The notes under the pieces are model-generated. The model was not told where the DNA came from. It saw only the letters and a list, made by a program, of their open reading frames with translations, and searched no databases. From Macrostomum lignano (lineage: Eukaryota): a DNA stretch of 60,741 bases. Below are positions 47,908-60,308 of the stretch, piece by piece (within the stretch, counting starts at the first letter, position 1; each line of letters starts with the position of its first letter). Where the stretch lies: assembly GCA_002269645.1 (NCBI GenBank), contig NIVC01004099.1, forward strand, positions 1 through 60,741, written 5' to 3'. The translations under genes and the position numbers were made by a program.

Positions 47908-50900
47908 ATGAGCCAAAATAAAAGCCGACATCAGCAACCGACCACCGAAAACATTACTGCTGCTGCACGTAATGGTCGTTTTCAAGACGTCAAGTTTCTT
48001 ATCCGAAAACTCAATGACCAATCAAACAGGGACACCTGCTGCATCAAAGCTGCCGAAAAAGCTGCATACAATGGTCACATTGGAATCGTCAAGTTTCTCA
48101 TCTCACAAATCAATGACCAATCAAACAGGGACACCTGCTGCATCAAAGCTGCCGAAAATGCTGCACTCTGTGGTCACTTTGAAATCGTCAAGTTTCTCCT
48201 CTCACAAAACAATGACCAATCAAACAGGGACACCTGCTGCATCAAAGCTGCCGAAAATGCTGCAGTCTGTGGTCACTTTGAAATCGTCAAGTTTCTCCTC
48301 TCACAAATCAATGACCAATCGAACAGGGACACCTGCTGCATCAAAGCTGCCGAAAAAGCCGCAAACGATGGTCATTTTGGAGTCGTCAAGTTTCTCGTCC
48401 CACAAATCAATGACCAATCGAACAGGGACACCTGCTGCATCAAAGCTGCCGAAAATGCTGCAAACAATGGTCACTTTGAAGTCGTCAAGTTTCTGCTCTC
48501 ACAAATCAATGGCCTATCGAACAGGGACACCTGCTGCATCAAAGCTTCCGAAAAAGCTGCAATCCGTGGTAACTTTAAATTCGTCAAGTTTCTCCTCTCA
48601 CAAATCAATAACCAATCGAACAGGGACACCTGCTGCATCAAAGCTGCCGAAAATGCTGCAAGTAATGGTTACATTGAAATCGTCAAGTTTCTCGTACCAC
48701 AAATCAATGGCCAATCGAACAGGGACACCTGCTGCATCAAAGCTGCCGAAAAAGCCGCAAACAATGGTCACTTTGAAATCGTCAAGTTTCTCGTACCACA
48801 AATCAATGGCCAATCGAACAGGGACACCTGCTGCATCAAAGCTGCCGAAAAAGCCTCAAACAATGGTCACTTTGAAATCGTCAAGTTTCTCGTACCACAA
48901 ATCAATAACCAATCGAAACGGGACACCTGCTGCATCGAAGCTGCCGAAAAAGCCGCAAACAATGGTCACTTTGAAGTCGTCAAGTTTCTCGTACCAGAAA
49001 TCAATGACCAATCGAACAGGGACACCTGCTGCATCAAAGCTGCCGAAAAAGCCGCAAACAATGGTCACTTTGAAATCGTCAAGTTTGTTGTACCACAAAT
49101 CAATGACCAATCGAACAGGGACACCTGCTGCATCAAAGCTGCCGAAAATGCTGCACTCCGTGGTCACTTTGAAATCGTCAAGTTTCTCCTCTCACAAATC
49201 AATGACCAATCGATCAGGGACACCTGCTGCATCAAAGCTGCCGAAAATGCCTCATACAATGGTCACTTTGAAGTCGTCAAGTTTCTCGTACCAGAAATCA
49301 ATGACCAATCGAACAGGGACACCTGCTGCATCAAAGCTGCCGAAAAAGCTGCAAACAATGGTCACTTTGAAATCGTCAAGTTTGTTGTACCACAAATCAA
49401 TGACCAATCGAACAGGGACACCTGCTGCATCAAAGCTGCCGAAAATGCTGCACTCCGTGGTCACTTTGAAATCGTCAAGTTTCTCCTCTCACAAATCAAT
49501 GACCAATCGATCAGGGACACCTGCTGCATCAAAGCTGCCGAAAATGCCTCATACAATGGTCACTTTGAAGTCGTCAAGTTTCTCGTACCAGAAATCAATG
49601 ACCAATCGAACAGGGACACCTGCTGCATCAAAGCTGCCGAAAAAGCTGCAAACAATGGTCACTTTGAAATCGTCAAGTTTGTTGTACCACAAATCAATGA
49701 CCAATCGAACAGGGACACCTGCTGCATCAAAGCTGCCGAAAATGCTGCAATGTGTGGTAACTTTGAAATCGTCAAGTTTTTCCTCTCACAAATCGATGAC
49801 CAATCGAACAGGGACACCTGCTGCATCAAAGCTGCCGAATATGCTGCACTCCGTGGTCACTTTAAAATCGTCAAGTTTCTCCTCTCACAAATCAATGACC
49901 AATCGAACAGGGACACCTGCTGCATCAAAGCTGCCGAAAAAGCCGCAAACAATGGTCACTTTGAAGTCGTCAAGTTTCTTGTACCACAAATCAATGACCA
50001 ATCAAACAGGGACACCTGCTGCAACAAAGCTGCCGAAAAAGCCGCAAACAATGGTCACTTTGAAGTCGTCAAGTTTCTTGTACCACAAATCAATGGCCTA
50101 TCGAACAGGGACACCTGCTGCATCAAAGCTGCCGAAAATGCTGCACTCCGTGGTCACTTTGAAATCGTCAAGTTTCTCCTCTCACAAATCAATGACCAAT
50201 CGATCAGGGACACCTGCTGCATCAAAGCTGCCGAAAAAGCTGCAATCCGTGGAAACTTTAAATTCGTCAAGTTTCTCCTCTCACAAATCAATGACCAATC
50301 GAACAGGGACACCTGCTGCATCAAAGCTGCCGAAAATGCTGCACTCCGTGGTCACTTTGAAATCGTCAAGTTTCTCCTCTCACAAATCAATGACCAATCG
50401 ATCAGGGACACCTGCTGCATCAAAGCTGCCGAAAATGCTGCAAACAATGGTCACTTTGAAGTCGTCAAGTTTCTCGTACCAGAAATCAATGACCAATCGA
50501 ACAGGGACACCTGCTGCATCAAAGCTGCCGAAAATGCTGCACTCCGTGGTCACTTTAAAATCGTCAAGTTTCTCCTCTCACAAATCAATGACCAATCGAT
50601 CAGGGACACCTGCTGCATCAAAGCTGCCGAAAAAGCCGCAAACAATGGTCACTTTGAAGTCGTCAAGTTTCTTGTACCACAAATCAATGACCAATCAAAC
50701 AGGGACACCTGCTGCAACAAAGCTGCCGAAAAAGCCGCAAACAATGGTCACTTTGAAGTCGTCAAGTTTCTGCTCTCACAAATCAATGGCCTATCGAACA
50801 GGGACACCTGCTGCATCAAAGCTGCCGAAAATGCTGCAGACAATGGTCACTTTGAAAGCGTCAAGTTTGTTGTATCACAAATCAATGACCAATCGAACAG

Positions 50901-52224
50901 GGACACCTGCTGCATCAAAGCTGCCGAAAATGCTGCACTCCGTGGTCACTTTGAAATCGTCAAGTTTCTCCTCTCACAAATCAATGACCAATCGAACAGG
51001 GACACCTGCTGCATCAAAGCTGCCGAAAAAGCTGCATACAATGGTCACATTGGAATCGTCAAGTTTCTCCTCTCACAAATCAATGACCAATCGAACAGGG
51101 ACACCTGCTGCATCAAAGCTGCCGAAAGTGCTGCAAACAATGGTCACTTTGAAGTCGTCAAGTTTCTGCTCTCACAAATCAATGGCCTATCGAACAGGGA
51201 CGCCTGCTGCATCAAAGCTGCCGAATATGCTGCACTCCGTGGTCACTTTGAAATCGTCAAGTTTCTCCTCTCACAATTCAATGACCAATCGAACAGGGAC
51301 ACCTGCTGCATCAAAGCTGCCGAAAATGCTGCAATCGGTGGTCACTTTAAAGTCGTTGATTTTTTTTTTTCGTGTCTCTCAAGTGCCGATCAGAAAGCGA
51401 ATCTCCGTTTCCAATGCGCAGTCGCTGCTTGCTCTCGTCTTCACGAAAATGTCGTTGCCTCCCTCAGCCTGGAGCCCGACTGGCTCTTCCAATCCAGCAG
51501 CACCCTCAACTTCATTGCAGCAATGGCCATCCAAGGCACCAACTCCGTTCTCACCGACACTCTCTCTCGAATGCAAGCAGCTGAAATCACACGCCTGCTC
51601 CGTCTCTCCATCTCTCAAAGACACGTCGCTCTTGCCGCTACACTGCTCAATCATGAGCGATTCAGCACACAGCATGTCGATCTCCCAGACGACAACACCC
51701 GAGCCACCGCTCTCATGCTCGCAGCTGATGCAGGTCATCACGAACTTATTCACAAACTAATCCATCTCGGTGCCTCACTGCACGCTCAAGACACTCACGG
51801 TCGCACTGCTCTGTCACGAGCCTGCCAAGCCGGTCACGTGCGAGCAGCCAAGACTCTCATCGACAATGGAGCCGATGCCAGCCATCAAGACAGTCAGGGC
51901 CTCACATGTGCGCAGCTCGCGCAGCAATTTGAGCAGCGGCAGGTGCTGCGGCTGCTGAATCCTACCGTGTCAGTTCCCTTTACTTACCTTTCCACATCAC
52001 ATCACTTCCCTACCTTACCTCGCTTTCCTTCACACATTCCAGAAATCGACAGCAGCCCAAGCCATCCGCTCACCGCCTCCATCTGTGAGTCTGACCGCTT
52101 TCAATGTCCCCTTCCTTCCTTGGGTTGTGCTTGGGCCACTCTGCAAATCCTACTACATATCGTGCAGATAGAGCCGGGTTTTCAGAATTTTGACGCAAAA
52201 AACGCAAATTATACTACTATCTGA
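47908..52224 (+). CDS. Ankyrin-repeat protein: ~34 near-identical atypical 33-aa repeats plus 2-3 canonical ankyrin repeats; the true 3' end is probably spliced after ~51965
   Basis: ATG-initiated open frame. The 99-bp unit is NDQSNRDTCCIKAAEKAANNGHFEVVKFLVPQI, followed by canonical TALMLAADAGH..LIHLGA..D.HGRTALSRACQAGH..LIDNGAD. Confidence 0.8.
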   Translation: MSQNKSRHQQPTTENITAAARNGRFQDVKFLIRKLNDQSNRDTCCIKAAEKAAYNGHIGIVKFLISQINDQSNRDTCCIKAAENAALCGHFEIVKFLLSQNNDQSNRDTCCIKAAENAAVCGHFEIVKFLLSQINDQSNRDTCCIKAAEKAANDGHFGVVKFLVPQINDQSNRDTCCIKAAENAANNGHFEVVKFLLSQINGLSNRDTCCIKASEKAAIRGNFKFVKFLLSQINNQSNRDTCCIKAAENAASNGYIEIVKFLVPQINGQSNRDTCCIKAAEKAANNGHFEIVKFLVPQINGQSNRDTCCIKAAEKASNNGHFEIVKFLVPQINNQSKRDTCCIEAAEKAANNGHFEVVKFLVPEINDQSNRDTCCIKAAEKAANNGHFEIVKFVVPQINDQSNRDTCCIKAAENAALRGHFEIVKFLLSQINDQSIRDTCCIKAAENASYNGHFEVVKFLVPEINDQSNRDTCCIKAAEKAANNGHFEIVKFVVPQINDQSNRDTCCIKAAENAALRGHFEIVKFLLSQINDQSIRDTCCIKAAENASYNGHFEVVKFLVPEINDQSNRDTCCIKAAEKAANNGHFEIVKFVVPQINDQSNRDTCCIKAAENAAMCGNFEIVKFFLSQIDDQSNRDTCCIKAAEYAALRGHFKIVKFLLSQINDQSNRDTCCIKAAEKAANNGHFEVVKFLVPQINDQSNRDTCCNKAAEKAANNGHFEVVKFLVPQINGLSNRDTCCIKAAENAALRGHFEIVKFLLSQINDQSIRDTCCIKAAEKAAIRGNFKFVKFLLSQINDQSNRDTCCIKAAENAALRGHFEIVKFLLSQINDQSIRDTCCIKAAENAANNGHFEVVKFLVPEINDQSNRDTCCIKAAENAALRGHFKIVKFLLSQINDQSIRDTCCIKAAEKAANNGHFEVVKFLVPQINDQSNRDTCCNKAAEKAANNGHFEVVKFLLSQINGLSNRDTCCIKAAENAADNGHFESVKFVVSQINDQSNRDTCCIKAAENAALRGHFEIVKFLLSQINDQSNRDTCCIKAAEKAAYNGHIGIVKFLLSQINDQSNRDTCCIKAAESAANNGHFEVVKFLLSQINGLSNRDACCIKAAEYAALRGHFEIVKFLLSQFNDQSNRDTCCIKAAENAAIGGHFKVVDFFFSCLSSADQKANLRFQCAVAACSRLHENVVASLSLEPDWLFQSSSTLNFIAAMAIQGTNSVLTDTLSRMQAAEITRLLRLSISQRHVALAATLLNHERFSTQHVDLPDDNTRATALMLAADAGHHELIHKLIHLGASLHAQDTHGRTALSRACQAGHVRAAKTLIDNGADASHQDSQGLTCAQLAQQFEQRQVLRLLNPTVSVPFTYLSTSHHFPTLPRFPSHIPEIDSSPSHPLTASICESDRFQCPLPSLGCAWATLQILLHIVQIEPGFQNFDAKNANYTTI

Positions 52225-53182: not shown

Positions 53183-53456
53183 GTAGTAGTATAGAAAAAG
53201 ACGCTTCTAGACCCAGAGCACTTTTTTAATGACCGTTTTGAGGGTCTGGAGGGGGGACACGGGGGGTAAATAAAAAAACACATCTAAACACCATTAATAC
53301 ATCTAATCACCCATAATCACCCCTAACAATAAAAATCACTTCCCAACACTTCCAAACACTCCCCAACACCCCCTCGCGTCCCCCCTCTTAAGACCTTAAA
53401 AACGGCCATTAAAATAAGGTCTGATCTAGAGGCGTCTTTTTCTATACTACTACTCT
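53183..53456. repeat. Imperfect inverted repeat of the terminal ~85 bp (arms ~53183-53268 and ~53367-53453)
   Basis: GTAGTAGTATAGAAAAAGACGC at 53183 and its exact reverse complement ending at 53453; the similarity continues inward with mismatches. Confidence 0.9.
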
Positions 53457-53839: not shown

Positions 53840-54094
53840 ATGAACTATTATTCTATAACAGAAACGACATTTATTGTGAAAAATATATATAAAAAAATGA
53901 AGGTAAATCGAACCCATGGTTCGCGTGCTTTGCACGATTACTCCTACATCGGAAATGTGCCGATTAATGAACTTAATGAAAATTTAAGTCTAATCACCGT
54001 TGAACAAATGTCAATAATAATATTAGTAACAATAATAGTAATAATATTGTTTTTGTTTGTTATAAAAAATTTACTACCATGTTGTCTTAAGTAA
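53840..54094 (+). CDS. Viral small membrane protein (84 aa, C-terminal TM helix)
   Basis: AAAAAATG start; hydrophobic IIILVTIIVIILFLFVI followed by KNLLPCCLK. Confidence 0.55.
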   Translation: MNYYSITETTFIVKNIYKKMKVNRTHGSRALHDYSYIGNVPINELNENLSLITVEQMSIIILVTIIVIILFLFVIKNLLPCCLK

Positions 54095-54104
54095 CTGTTT
54101 GAAC

Positions 54105-55712
54105 TTAGTTCGCAGACATTATCTGGTTCTCATAAAAAGAACCCAATATTTCTTCACCGTCCTTATCAGCAATTATATAGGTTGTAGGATTGGTATTTAA
54201 AACTTTACTGATAGTAAATTTCTCACTTATCTTCCAATATCCTTTTCTTCCTTTTTCAAACTTATCTTTCCATTTATAGATATAAACAGAATCACCAACC
54301 TTAAAAGATTTCTTTTTATTTTTTTCAAATTTTCCAAAAGTAACTTTAACTTTTTCAGGATTGTTATAAGCTTGTTGAGGAGTCATCTTTATAGCTGAAT
54401 GATATGAGTTATTATAATCTTTCACGACGTCTGGTAATATTTTTACCCACTTTTGGTTTCCATTAAGACTAAACTGAATCCACAATTTCTTACCTAAAGT
54501 TCGATTAAATCTTTCTATTAATGCGTTTTTGCTTTCTCCATAAATAGAATAAATTTTATTAATATACTCCCCATTCGCGTCCTTTTTCCTTTCTTGTCCT
54601 TTTTCAAAATGATACAATTTATACATGTGAGGATTGTAAAATTCTTTTCCTTCGTCAACACACAAACGTTCGCTTTTTTCTCCAAGACTTCTAAAAGCAG
54701 CAGCAACATCCTCTCCTTTTTTGGATTTCAAAGGAACAGCCCACGCGTAGCGAGTAAAACCATCTAATATTGTTAAGATATATTTATATCCTCTTTCGTT
54801 CGGCATCGACATTAAATCAGCATACCAAATTTCATTCTTTTTGAAGTTCATGATTTTTCTATAAAATTTAGGTTTTCGGTATTCTTTATGAAGAACCTTA
54901 GCCTTATCATAACTTAGCCCACTACCACTTAATAACAAACATTCGACACAATTATTACCATGTTGGTTGTAATTAATTCCTAAACCAAATTTAACTTTAG
55001 ACTGCAAAATCTTTTTAACCATCCACCTAGTTAATCTTTGCCCTACCGATAATCCCTGCAAGTTATCTAATCCTTGAATCATTTTTTGATCGGCTTCGTG
55101 TTTTAATCTTAACGCTTCCTCGGGCGGGTTCTTGTCAGCATCTCTATATGCTAAGTCGTGATAGTATGCTAACCAATCAATCCCATTTATTGGAATTGAA
55201 TCAGATTTTGGAGTGTCATCAGGATTTAATCTCAAATCTAAGCGAGTGCCGGGTAGTTTACCCTCAATCTTTCGAAAGAGGCTGGAGCACACCTTAAGCG
55301 GCGATAATTACCGCCCATCTCCGTCTGCTCTCTGAACCTTCTCCTTATATTTAAAATACTTAGGAGCTTGGCTGCGCATTGCCACCGTGTCTTCAAGCTT
55401 TTTACCATCGAACCATAGGTTCGCGGACGAAGTCCGATTGGGAAGAGGAGTTACCTCTGTTCCTTCAAAAGATTTCTCAATTGAAGTGGTACTTGAAGCT
55501 GTATGATGGGTTTCACGCAATTTGGAGATGTCGCCACAAATAGTGACTAGCAAGGACATTGCCTTCCTCACTCAGGCCACGGGTTAACCTGTGAAGTTCA
55601 TTGATGGTAGGTGTAGTTCCCCTGTATATTTACCAGTAGTAAAGATTGGTGGCAAGCTTGTTAATCCTTTTTGAACATCTAAAAATCCTCCTTCAAATAC
55701 TATTTGGTTCAT
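54105..55712 (-). CDS. PLA2 (parvovirus VP1u-like) - retroviral-type integrase fusion, 424 aa after splicing; exon 1 55712-55587, exon 2 55253-54105
   Basis: Exon 1 reads MNQIVFEGGFLDV..GELHLPSMNFTG and joins PGTRLDLRL..PINGIDWLAYYHDLAY..HEADQKM (PLA2 GPG loop, HD and D). Integrase follows with WYADL, YILTILDGFTRYAWAVPLKSK, CVDEGKEF, IERFNRTL, YNNSYHSAIKMTP and FKVGDSV..GSFYE (D-D-E triad). Confidence 0.92.
55254..55586 (-). ncRNA. Group I intron, IC1-like, 333 nt, no internal homing-endonuclease ORF
   Basis: P1 exon CAGGU pairs with IGS GCCUG (U.G at the splice site). P3 CAUCUCC/GGAGAUG; P AAAUUGCGUGAAA; Q AAUGCGCAGCC; R GUUCAGAGAGCAGA; S AAGGUGUGCUCC; P7 GAGCA/UGCUC. L5b GAAA loop with receptor CCUAAG..UAAGG in P6; P8 GGCGGU/AUCGCC; P9 with GAAA loop; P9.0 AG/CU. 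Removal restores NFTG-PGT. Confidence 0.93.
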
Positions 55713-56196
55713 TTTTAATGTTTAAAAAACATGTTTCTATCAATTTAATAATTTCTAAATATTGGCCACCATATAAAAAATTTAAAGCAAATTCCCCAGT
55801 TAACAAGGTAACTCCATTATCAAATACTTTTTGTACGGGGTTTTTAGTAGTATTATTAATGCAAATATAATATAAATCAAATTCGGGATTAACATATTTA
55901 AATTCTAATAACTTTTGAATATTTCTAAATCGACTTGATGAATTATCTGTGTTATCAGAAGATTTTAACTCTAACGCAACTTTTCTTTCTGTATGAATTA
56001 AATCAATTTTATTTACTTTTTCAAAACCAAAATGTTTAATAGCTAATAATTCATAAAGAGATCCAAGTCTCATTTGTATTGTTTTAATATGGTTTGCAAT
56101 TATTAATTCATCTTGAAATATTTTATTTAGTATTCTGTCAGAACCAACTTTATCACAAATAGGCTTACAAAGGTGGTCTTTTATTGTTTCATCCAT
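55693..56196 (-). CDS. PD-(D/E)XK restriction-endonuclease-like nuclease (Eco47II-like type as seen in large DNA viruses), 167 aa
   Basis: KTIQMRLG, then IDL..ALELKSSDNTDNSSS..N..KL.EFK..NPE, giving a D..ELK catalytic pattern. The family assignment is from recalled similarity. Confidence 0.65.
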   Translation of the reverse strand: MDETIKDHLCKPICDKVGSDRILNKIFQDELIIANHIKTIQMRLGSLYELLAIKHFGFEKVNKIDLIHTERKVALELKSSDNTDNSSSRFRNIQKLLEFKYVNPEFDLYYICINNTTKNPVQKVFDNGVTLLTGEFALNFLYGGQYLEIIKLIETCFLNIKNEPNSI

Positions 56197-56922: not shown

Positions 56923-58395
56923 ATGGCTGAAACAAAAACTATGTGGAGTGATAAATTTCATTTCAAAAAGCACCGACAGTATATTAATGAGGTCAGAGCA
57001 AGAGATTTAAATTATACCCTACCAACAAGTGATAATTCAAATAACTTTACTACTGGAACGGTAACTTTTGACATCGGCGCAACCAACACTATATTGGATA
57101 TGAAAAATGCGTTTTTCCGCGTTAGATGGTTATATACTAGAAATGATGGAACTGCTCTTGCAGCCGGAGATATCGCAGATCGATCCGGAATAATAATAGA
57201 AAATGATTGGTTTTATAAATGTTTTTCCCAAGCTCAACTAACTGTTAATGGTGCTGAGGTTGAGACATCATCAAACCCCGCAGAGATTAATGGAGTTTTG
57301 AAACATTTAAATTATACTTATTTATCAAAACAAGTTGGTGATAATGTTGGGTGGATGCCGGATAAAGGTAACGGCCAAGCAGTAGTTTTCCCTAATGTAC
57401 AAAACGCAGCCGGTGCAGATACTGCAGCGCTAATTGTTTACCTTAATACAAACATAGTTCCAGTTGTAACCACTATGACTAATACAAAAGATATTAATAC
57501 TGGTTTTATAGATCGTCAGAATAAATTCCCAGTCGCGGTTTTAACCACAGCAACAGCATATGAGCAGGACTTTTCAATCTTTCCACTATTTGGGTTCTTC
57601 TCACCAAATCGGGTATGGAAAGGATTAAAATTTGGGATACAGTTGCAAATATCTGGTGGATATCAGCCTAGGATACTTTATGGAACCTCAATTTCAACCG
57701 ATATAGCAGTTCGTATAGATTCAATTCAATTAGTCGTACCAACTATTGAGGTAACAGCCCCACTTTTAAAACACATCGATAATCAGTTAACGCATGATCA
57801 GGAAATATTTTATTTGAATCGTAGACACTTTATGCGAACCATTAATAACAATCAGGATTCATTCCAGTGGCAAATACTGACATCAAAACGTCGGGTGAGA
57901 TATATTTTTGTTTGGTTTAAGATAACAAATAGAAGGAGTAAAAGAGCAAATGGGGATTTATATTGGCTTCAATCCGGTGCCATAGCAGAACAAGCAGCCA
58001 CCGCAACAGACAATGCGGCTGCAGCTATTAACGAGTTTAATGTTCAGAATATCCGCCTGCAGGTTGATGATCAATATTATCCGGTTAAAGATCCTCTTAA
58101 TCTAAATATTGCAAATAATAATGTTAATGATTTTATAAAATATTATCAAGATTATGCCAAAAATGAAGCATATGCCGTCCCTCAGTACACACCCACAGAG
58201 TTTCTAAACATTCATCCAGTGGTTGTTTATGATCTAACGGCACAGAAAGAAAACGTAGCCAATATTGGACTTAATTATATGTTAGAGATTAATAAAACTG
58301 GTAATCAGGCACTTGACGCCCACGTATTGTTTCTAGAGGAATATATGTCAATTGCTAAAGCTGATGGCACGATTGTTCGGGACGCCCCGCTGTAA
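56923..58395 (+). CDS. Double jelly-roll major capsid protein (Polinton PY/hexon-like), 490 aa
   Basis: Size, beta-rich composition, C-terminal YYP..PLNLNIANN..YYQDY..EFL..HPVVVYDLT.Q pattern, and position next to the ATPase and penton. Confidence 0.82.
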   Translation: MAETKTMWSDKFHFKKHRQYINEVRARDLNYTLPTSDNSNNFTTGTVTFDIGATNTILDMKNAFFRVRWLYTRNDGTALAAGDIADRSGIIIENDWFYKCFSQAQLTVNGAEVETSSNPAEINGVLKHLNYTYLSKQVGDNVGWMPDKGNGQAVVFPNVQNAAGADTAALIVYLNTNIVPVVTTMTNTKDINTGFIDRQNKFPVAVLTTATAYEQDFSIFPLFGFFSPNRVWKGLKFGIQLQISGGYQPRILYGTSISTDIAVRIDSIQLVVPTIEVTAPLLKHIDNQLTHDQEIFYLNRRHFMRTINNNQDSFQWQILTSKRRVRYIFVWFKITNRRSKRANGDLYWLQSGAIAEQAATATDNAAAAINEFNVQNIRLQVDDQYYPVKDPLNLNIANNNVNDFIKYYQDYAKNEAYAVPQYTPTEFLNIHPVVVYDLTAQKENVANIGLNYMLEINKTGNQALDAHVLFLEEYMSIAKADGTIVRDAPL

Positions 58396-58444: not shown

Positions 58445-59175
58445 ATGGTAAAGGCAAAACACGATAAGATATTTCCAAATGATCCTTTTCTTTGTTTAGT
58501 AATCGGAGGATCAGGTAAAGGAAAAACACACTTTGTTTACGATTTATTAACAACAGATGGAATGTTAGACTATAATAATTTAATAATTTATACTAATAAA
58601 CCTAGAATAAAATATTATGAATTTCTTAAACATGGATTAAAAAACAAATTAAAAAAAGATGTCTTGTTTAGAATGTTAAGAGCATATGAGCAATATGAGG
58701 ATGATGACGAACCGCGATTTACACTCGATGACATTGAGGATTTATGTAAAACAATGGCACAACAGCCAGAAAACATCACCGATCGCGCCCCAACTGTTAG
58801 AGTATCAACCCGATTAGCCTATGATCAAATTCCAAAACATGATAAAACACTAATTATTTTTGATGATTGTATTAATGACGGTGATCAAGAATTGCAAAAG
58901 GAAATTTTTGTTAGTGGTAGAGGAGATGGAATCGGAGCTTTTTATCTAACACAGTCTTTAGAGAATTAGAATCGATTATAAAAAAGAATGCAAGTTGTTG
59001 TGTAATGTTTGATTTAGATAATTATGATTTACAAAATATTCACGCTAGATTTAATCCCGGATTGGATGCAAAACCATTTAAAAGTATGTGTAAAAAAATT
59101 TGGGATGATAGCCAATACAAACATATTTATATCAATCCGAGGTTAGAAAGGAAAATCGAATTTAAAAATTTATAA
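58445..59175 (+). CDS. A32/FtsK-like genome-packaging ATPase, with a -1 frameshift at ~58950
   Basis: Walker A GGSGKGKT, Walker B IIFDD and FYLTQS. The shifted frame continues ELESIIKKNASCCVMF..DLQNIHARF..F..MC..IW to TAA at 59173-59175. Confidence 0.88.
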
Positions 59176-59276
59176 AAGAAGACGATAGGAAGAAGAATGA
59201 TCGCCCCATAGGGTCGCGAACTTCGTTCGATCGTTCCTTCGGAACGCGGACTTCGTCCGATTCTTCCACTATAAAA

Positions 59277-60060
59277 ATGACTACAAATTTAGATACTATA
59301 AAAAATTGGTAGATCGAACTAATTCAAAATTTAGTACAACATTACAGTTTATAATGACAACCAGCGAGCAACGGATTCAATTGCGCGATCCATTACAACT
59401 TGATCAAAGCCTAAGTTATCAAATAGGTTTAATACTATTTTCGGTTTTCAACATGCCTCAATTAATTAATGCAACAAATAATCAATTTAGATATTCTAAA
59501 GATTCCGGAGCCAATTGGACAACATTTAGCGTTAACCCAGGAGCGTATAGCTATACTGATTTGAATGCTTATATAGAAGGAGAATTAACAACTAATGGTG
59601 ATTGGGTAGCAGGAGCAATTGTTATAGGTGTTGATTTACCGTCTGGCAGATTCACACTATCACTAGGATCCGGATATCAGGTTGATTTCACAATTGCAAA
59701 TTCACTCAGAACCATACTTGGATTTAATTCCGAATAGTTACCACATCAAGCACCGGTGATACAGTTGGAAATATAGAGGGTGGAGTAAATACAATTAATA
59801 TAACAACCGACATTTCAAACGGTGGTTATATAACAGACGATAACGGAGTTTTGGTTCAACGTGGAATTATTTATTCAATCCCATTTCTTGTTGTTCCAAT
59901 TGGAGAGAAAATGATTGTATCACCTCAAACCCCAATATATTACCCATTAAATCAATATAATGTTCAATCAATTTATATTAGGATTGTAGATGAAAGCGAT
60001 AGATTAATAAGTTTTGGTGGGCAATCAATAACAATAATTTTACGGATAAAACAGGTTTGA
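59277..60060 (+). CDS. Minor capsid (penton, single jelly-roll), with -1 frameshifts at ~59300 and ~59733
   Basis: Reconstructed MTTNLDTIKKLVDRTNSKFSTTLQF..DPLQLD..YQIGL..F..LRTILGF..GEKMIVSPQTPIYYPL..IYIRIVDESDRLISFGGQSITIILRIK matches the Polinton penton pattern. Confidence 0.8.
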
Positions 60061-60308
60061 TCGAACCTTTGGTTCGCGGACTCCGTACGATCGTCCCGTA
60101 GGGTCGCGTGCTTTGCACGATCGTCCGTTTCCTATAGTAAAAATGTAATAATAATAAAAAAACAATCAGAAAAGTTAAAAAAGCTGAAGATAATTACGAA
60201 CTAGAACTAGCAAAATTAAGGCAGTTACAAGCTGATAAATAAGAAAGGAATTGTTAAAACCCACACCTACGAAACTAACTAAAACCAAGAGTTTTTCAGG
60301 AACATAAA

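Follow-up and report, generated by a model that had tools for sequence, protein, structure and literature searches.

A group I intron ending in A, shared by most sequenced copies, in the integrase gene of a Maverick/Polinton-like element

We observed that the window (the whole stretch of 60,741 nucleotides that was analysed) contains, from about 53183 to its end, the left part of a Maverick/Polinton-like element. The left terminus (53183..53453), with AGTAGTAT as its start at 53185 and with 29-nt inverted arms, is itself a 270-nt inverted repeat. We take the element to be a Maverick/Polinton with a PLA2-fused integrase, adintovirus-like. On the plus strand, an open frame at 56923..58395 encodes a probable double-jelly-roll (DJR) major capsid protein. 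Its Atlas feature matches (0.98) were to Preplasmiviricota clusters, two of which carry a DJR Pfam on 10-24% of their members, and we treat this as a lead. An A32-like packaging ATPase is found at 58445..59170, also on the plus strand (PF04665, E 0.0015, below the cut-off), and the putative protease and putative minor capsid genes gave no relevant Pfam match. Frame breaks were seen in the ATPase (near 58960), the putative minor capsid gene (about 59735) and the putative protease gene (about 60570), and reflect either decay or an assembly error. A family of short G-C-rich palindromes lies between the element genes (53906-53946, 55406-55446, 59199-59269 and 60059-60129). Directly upstream of the first exon of the integrase gene, an ORF on the minus strand (55693-56196) showed a weak match to a restriction endonuclease (PF09553, E 0.002), and could be a free-standing nuclease relevant to the spread of the intron described below.

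The flanking DNA contains a rhodopsin-family receptor gene (a weak Srw match), and MYG1 and helicase genes in pieces, which indicates that the element likely sits in the nuclear genome of an invertebrate animal. Just outside the element, a single ORF (47908-52224, plus strand) encodes a protein of 1438 aa with many near-identical ankyrin repeats. No tRNA was found in the window.

The integrase gene is on the minus strand, and is split in two. Exon 1 (55712..55587) begins with the ATG at 55712 and has 42 codons ending in MNFTG, which includes the F-T-G of a PLA2-like loop; directly 3' of it, at intron position +1, is an in-frame UAA. Exon 2 (55253..54105) starts with PGTRLDLRL, encodes the PLA2-like domain and the rve integrase, and is open over 382 codons from 55253. 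The match of the integrase to PF00665 was 32.7 bits, against a cut-off of 32.6, and the acidic residues D146, D200 and E247 of exon 2 were invariant across 18 aligned homologues. A methionine at exon-2 residue 58 lies ahead of the integrase core.

Between the exons lies a group I intron of 333 nt (55586..55254, minus strand) without a long ORF or an endonuclease. It matched RF00028 at 55263-55596 over the full model (1-253), with 60.9 bits (cut-off 50) and an E-value of 9.5e-15; the default Rfam scan of the window, run with fast filters, missed it, and it was recovered by an E-value scan. The fold was better than that of 100/100 shuffles (z -3.0). P1, its extension and the guide for P10 (55582-55578) occupy 55565..55596 (minus strand, like all the parts that follow), and P1 consists of the wobble U55587-G55577 at the 5' splice site and four further pairs. 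P7, the 3' strand of P3 and P8 are found at 55284..55332. P7 (55332-55326 with 55289-55284) has six standard pairs, among them, after a bulged A, the guanosine-binding pair G55330-C55285, which the sequence-only reading had correctly described as canonical. The P9 hairpin (55261..55281) has a GAAA loop and contains the in-frame Gs at 55269 and 55263. The 3' strand of P9.0 is the CU at 55255..55256, which pairs with the AG at 55283-55282 in both positions (A55283-U55255 and G55282-C55256). P10 is G-C-rich, and the single mismatch claimed for it was found again, with four of the first five positions paired and C55252 opposite U55579. One copy of the palindrome family (55406-55446) sits in the P5 extension of the intron, and the sibling variants in it, when read by eye against the fold, alter both sides of three pairs.

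In group I introns, no other base is as strongly conserved as the terminal G. Here the last intron nucleotide (55254, minus strand) is an A, the minus strand at 55260-55248 being UAAACUA|CCCGGC. As published exceptions to the terminal G exist, we consider the intron a variant of the group I type. Since the pairing of P7 is complete and its G-C binding pair canonical, there is no visible compensation for the A in the pocket.

The 3' splice site was placed after A55254 because the intron-free homologues read [YF]xG-PGT across the insertion site. The motif PG[TS][RN]L[DE] was present in 68 of 142 proteins, and the residue before it was G in 52, M in 10 and L in 5, with the query as the one other case. 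Among positions 55281-55226, the only one that combined the CU of P9.0, four P10 pairs and the correct frame was 55254. The end in A, which had been placed by the frame and P9.0, is thus borne out by the G-P motif of the homologues and by this pairing scan. If instead the true 3' splice site were an upstream G, the protein would carry a short insertion, of three residues for 55263 or five for 55269. Both positions are in frame, and the Rfam match stops at 55263. However, both lie inside the P9 hairpin without a P9.0 CU and with just 2-3 P10 pairs, and the sister introns end immediately before the Pro codon (as in P0132, discussed below). The spacing of the PLA2 loop from an upstream His was identical in 52 of the 53 matching proteins, and so neither these ends nor the in-frame G at 55233, which deletes seven residues, fit. 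We consider an upstream G very improbable as the true site.

The region was contained in 20 of the 24 listed sequencing runs (seven studies, one organism), and four runs from four studies were compared as assembled contigs. The RNA status of two of these, X3 and X15, was guessed, and none of the 24 is on record as an RNA run containing the region, which is no evidence on expression. In X1, a single contig covered 55219-55386 with 0 differences from the window. The contig feeding it (55095-55248, depth 221) differed from the window at five places (~3%), four of them third codon positions and one a D>N change, as assigned by matching depths. Because of these differences, the A appears to be shared by at least two haplotypes, with the linkage drawn across a 30-nt overlap. 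In X2, X3 and X15, one contig with 0 differences over 55278-55386 carried all the depth. No variant was recorded at 55254 among the best-supported 40 of the 79 variant rows from the four runs.

These comparisons established that most of the element's sequenced copies have the A, which is neither an error nor private to the window's copy. The sequence-only reading had held that a G in sibling copies or reads would mean a sequencing error or a one-copy change; in X1 it was the A that had a depth of 236.1 of 250.3. Its proposal of a single inactivating mutation in this copy is likewise unsupported, since the A is the dominant base in an independent run, and a second haplotype of exon 2 is linked to it. 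An error or private change would fit with the three other places at which the window differs from all compared contigs (55098, 55113 and 55653), and with the frame breaks elsewhere in this copy. Yet the depth in X1 and the absence of 55254 from the best 40 of 79 variant rows across four studies already largely refute it, and we regard it as extremely improbable.

We also looked at where contigs ended. Of 39 distinct ends, 20 were at places predicted by the listed variants, against 4.9 by chance. In X3, a diverged contig with a depth of 20 and 13 differences over 133 nt stopped at 55284. Such an end calls for a branch at 55285 or, alternatively, a variant at 55254; among the unlisted places of X3, there was exactly one T>C and neither a T>A nor a T>G. 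From this contig end and this single T>C place, a minor diverged sibling in the same organism probably ends in G.

Sister introns at the same site were found among related proteins. In P0132, a related intron inserted at this G|P site has been read through; of 25 residues, 16 agree with a reading frame of the window intron. The read-through ends in Met-Pro, and the sister intron must therefore have a terminal G. Met-Pro was present in 10 proteins; as gene callers start at ATG, this class is over-counted, and it indicates that G sisters exist and not how frequent they are. In the sibling read-throughs P0003, P0045, P0125 and P0126, Leu precedes Pro-Gly, where A and G are indistinguishable. A related group I intron occupies this G|P site in other Mavericks too (the P0009 cluster with 34 members, P0012, P0027 and P0036); its P7 is canonical and its last base, from the codons, is a G. 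Intron-free close relatives were P0002, P0122, P0124 and P0005. These could supply integrase in trans, and they may also be spliced products. As intron-bearing members are mixed with others in the P0009 and P0036 clusters, including the intron-free P0141, the intron is an optional one that may occur widely.

Related introns were also observed at a DGD|EMN site in the RPB1 gene of giant viruses. Of 94 loci, 92 ended in G and two in A, with a pattern that permitted only A or G and with 5 of 99 rows left out. A scan blind to the terminal base listed 93 matches, of which 91 ended in G, 2 in A and 0 in C or U, after 27 of 120 rows were left out (16 introns at an upstream site and 11 that were not RPB1). 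The two sets overlap and contain near-duplicates, and the A cases of both are the same two contigs, L073 (= L007, L181) and L115 (= L005, L014, L263). These are different viruses (with 76% identity over one stretch and 74% over another), and RPB1 is open on both sides of the intron. A tree of the introns was built from 58 of 77 tails (48 distinct), the 19 without the anchor motif having been dropped. In it, L073 and L115, whose A is that of the contig sequences, share a small clade with the G-ending L081. The window intron falls outside this clade, on a long branch whose position has no support, and three changes on this tree are needed to account for the three A-ending introns. By its place on the tree and these changes, the A of the window intron is independent; with the sisters and the RPB1 introns ending in G and the A cases apart, G is ancestral and A has arisen more than once. 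L073, L115 and L081 thus make up a close natural A/G trio.

A viral scan with exon 2 found no relative, and one with the alignment gave 29 loci, with a group I intron in 0 of the 12 scanned. A metagenome pattern scan with the intron end and exon 2 gave two matches, both by chance, and further scans gave 0 in prokaryote genomes and 0 in phages.

As to selection, among the best-supported 40 of 79 variant rows, none of the 39 variant places fell within 55254-55425, the 172 nt that span the terminal base and the core, and the core invariance holds for these well-supported variants. The places were in exon 2 (15), the intron periphery (17) and exon 1 (7), and in the same set 18 of the 22 exon places were third codon positions. 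The silent-site bias and the core conservation could predate the A, or stem from recombination. We saw no exon 1-exon 2 joint in the contigs of the four runs, two of which (X3 and X15) were only guessed to be RNA; splicing is therefore unproven.

One reading of these data, missing from the alternatives first offered for the locus, is a family-wide lesion. Here the A would block ligation across the dominant subfamily, and the copies would spread non-autonomously with integrase from intron-free or G-ending relatives. The lack of a spliced contig would agree with it, as would the intron-free relatives at 59-71% identity, the greater depth of exon 2 than of the intron in X1 and X3, the probable G-ending minor sibling, the other broken genes of this copy, and the retention of G in most of the related viral introns. 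On the other side, most differences of the A-linked haplotype are silent, none of the best-supported variants touches the core, the integrase has an open frame and retains its acidic residues, and natural A-ending introns are able to ligate exons (PMC6545197, in the part available to us). We regard a dead intron as possible though somewhat unlikely; if the intron is dead, the finding reduces to a widely copied lesion.

The ribozyme might also be bypassed, by the spliceosome (GU at 55588 and AG at 55238) or by a restart of translation at the exon-2 methionine. The spliceosomal route is in frame with the loss of six PLA2-loop residues, and is the only in-frame GU-AG pair found with its donor at the end of exon 1; the host MYG1 and helicase genes are in pieces, as spliceosomal exons would be. 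A restart, for which the methionine at residue 58 is suitably placed before the core, would give an integrase without the PLA2-like domain. However, G-P is kept in all 52 intron-free homologues, no such joint was present in the contigs of the four runs, and a bypass leaves the conserved ribozyme core unexplained. We consider it improbable.

In the first step of group I splicing, free guanosine binds the G-C pair of P7 and cuts at the P1 wobble; a terminal A is unable to form the normal base triple. A single site in P7 takes the free G first and the terminal G afterwards (PMC3984707 and PMC2588497, as far as accessible). We propose, with a probability of about one in two, that the A-ending intron still splices, with the terminal A tolerated and the second step slow. 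The intact core, the G site, the P1 wobble, P9.0, P10, the multi-copy A and the open integrase frame are in agreement with this. Also in its favour are the variant-free core and the third-position bias among the best-supported variants, the A-ending RPB1 introns in open genes, and the exon ligation of the hexacoral ND5-717 intron. The first step would be normal, with free guanosine on G55330-C55285 and a cut at the P1 wobble. The terminal A would then dock poorly, P9.0 and the G-C-rich P10 would be the main determinants of the 3' splice site, and exon ligation would be accurate but inefficient. Translation of the unspliced RNA would stop after 42 codons at the UAA, so that PLA2-integrase would come from just a fraction of the transcripts and its output would be low. 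It is plausible that slow ligation would throttle the integrase in this manner. In this lineage, a single change from a terminal G may have given rise to the A, which would then have been amplified with the element.

RPB1 is essential to giant viruses, and two of them carry an A-ending intron in this RNA polymerase gene, which suggests that a terminal A may be a recurring viable state of the intron lineage. More tentatively, then, an active A-ending ribozyme may splice a protein-coding transcript in an animal nucleus and act as a built-in brake on the Maverick integrase, a brake that would have evolved from an ancestor ending in G and then come to prevail in this genome.

Group I introns in the nucleus were described as confined to rRNA genes in a 2013 review (PMC3679873), and those of animals as mitochondrial, in a few orders of cnidarians, sponges and placozoans (PMC8146996, accessible in part). 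Our literature search, which took in few subscription journals and main texts without supplements, gave group I introns in protist polinton-like viruses only and in no animal Maverick. RF00028 introns of 309-376 bp have been reported in integrated protist polinton-like viruses (PMC12220804); in the accessible part of that paper they are from few protist groups only, in a short gene preceding the capsid gene, with no mention of the terminal base, the integrase gene or an animal host. The accessible parts of PMC10748475, PMC11296320, PMC11071296, PMC3984707, PMC2588497 and 10.64898/2026.10.13.758929 contain nothing on terminal-A or animal Maverick introns. What is likely to be new is a terminal A that originated independently and is multi-copy, in an intron whose element probably sits in an animal nucleus and whose natural sisters end in G.

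The element resembles other PLA2-integrase Mavericks in its AGTAG-type terminus, A32-like ATPase and probable DJR capsid, and the homologues among these have the PF08398 and PF00665 architecture; it differs from them in having a group I intron within the integrase gene. The intron itself is like the giant-virus RPB1 introns in its core (best matches with 76-80% identity across 65-92 nt), in a P7 variant shared with L002-L006 and in that two of those introns are A-ending, although the host gene is different. The Cbu.L1917 intron in the 23S rRNA of Coxiella burnetii reportedly has a natural terminal A as well, with reduced splicing; unlike the window intron, it is a bacterial rRNA intron.

A close comparison is with the mitochondrial ND5 introns of hexacorals, the precedent cited by the sequence-only reading, and the accessible parts of PMC6545197 and PMC8146996 support it. 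The hexacoral ND5-717 intron ends in A; its exons are correctly ligated in vivo, with >70% of the precursor unspliced (PMC6545197, in the part accessible). It is therefore a precedent for exon ligation that is accurate yet inefficient. Both introns have an A in place of the terminal G with a conserved core, and the A at depth 236 of 250 in X1 is common to more than one copy, as in functional introns of the ND5-717 type. ND5-717 is a mitochondrial intron that is obligatory, passes on by vertical inheritance and carries genes within P8, whereas the window intron is only 333 nt long, optional, and in a mobile element with G-ending sisters at the same site. The hexacoral intron is very large and hard to assay; the window intron, in contrast, is compact and multi-copy, and has same-site G sisters.
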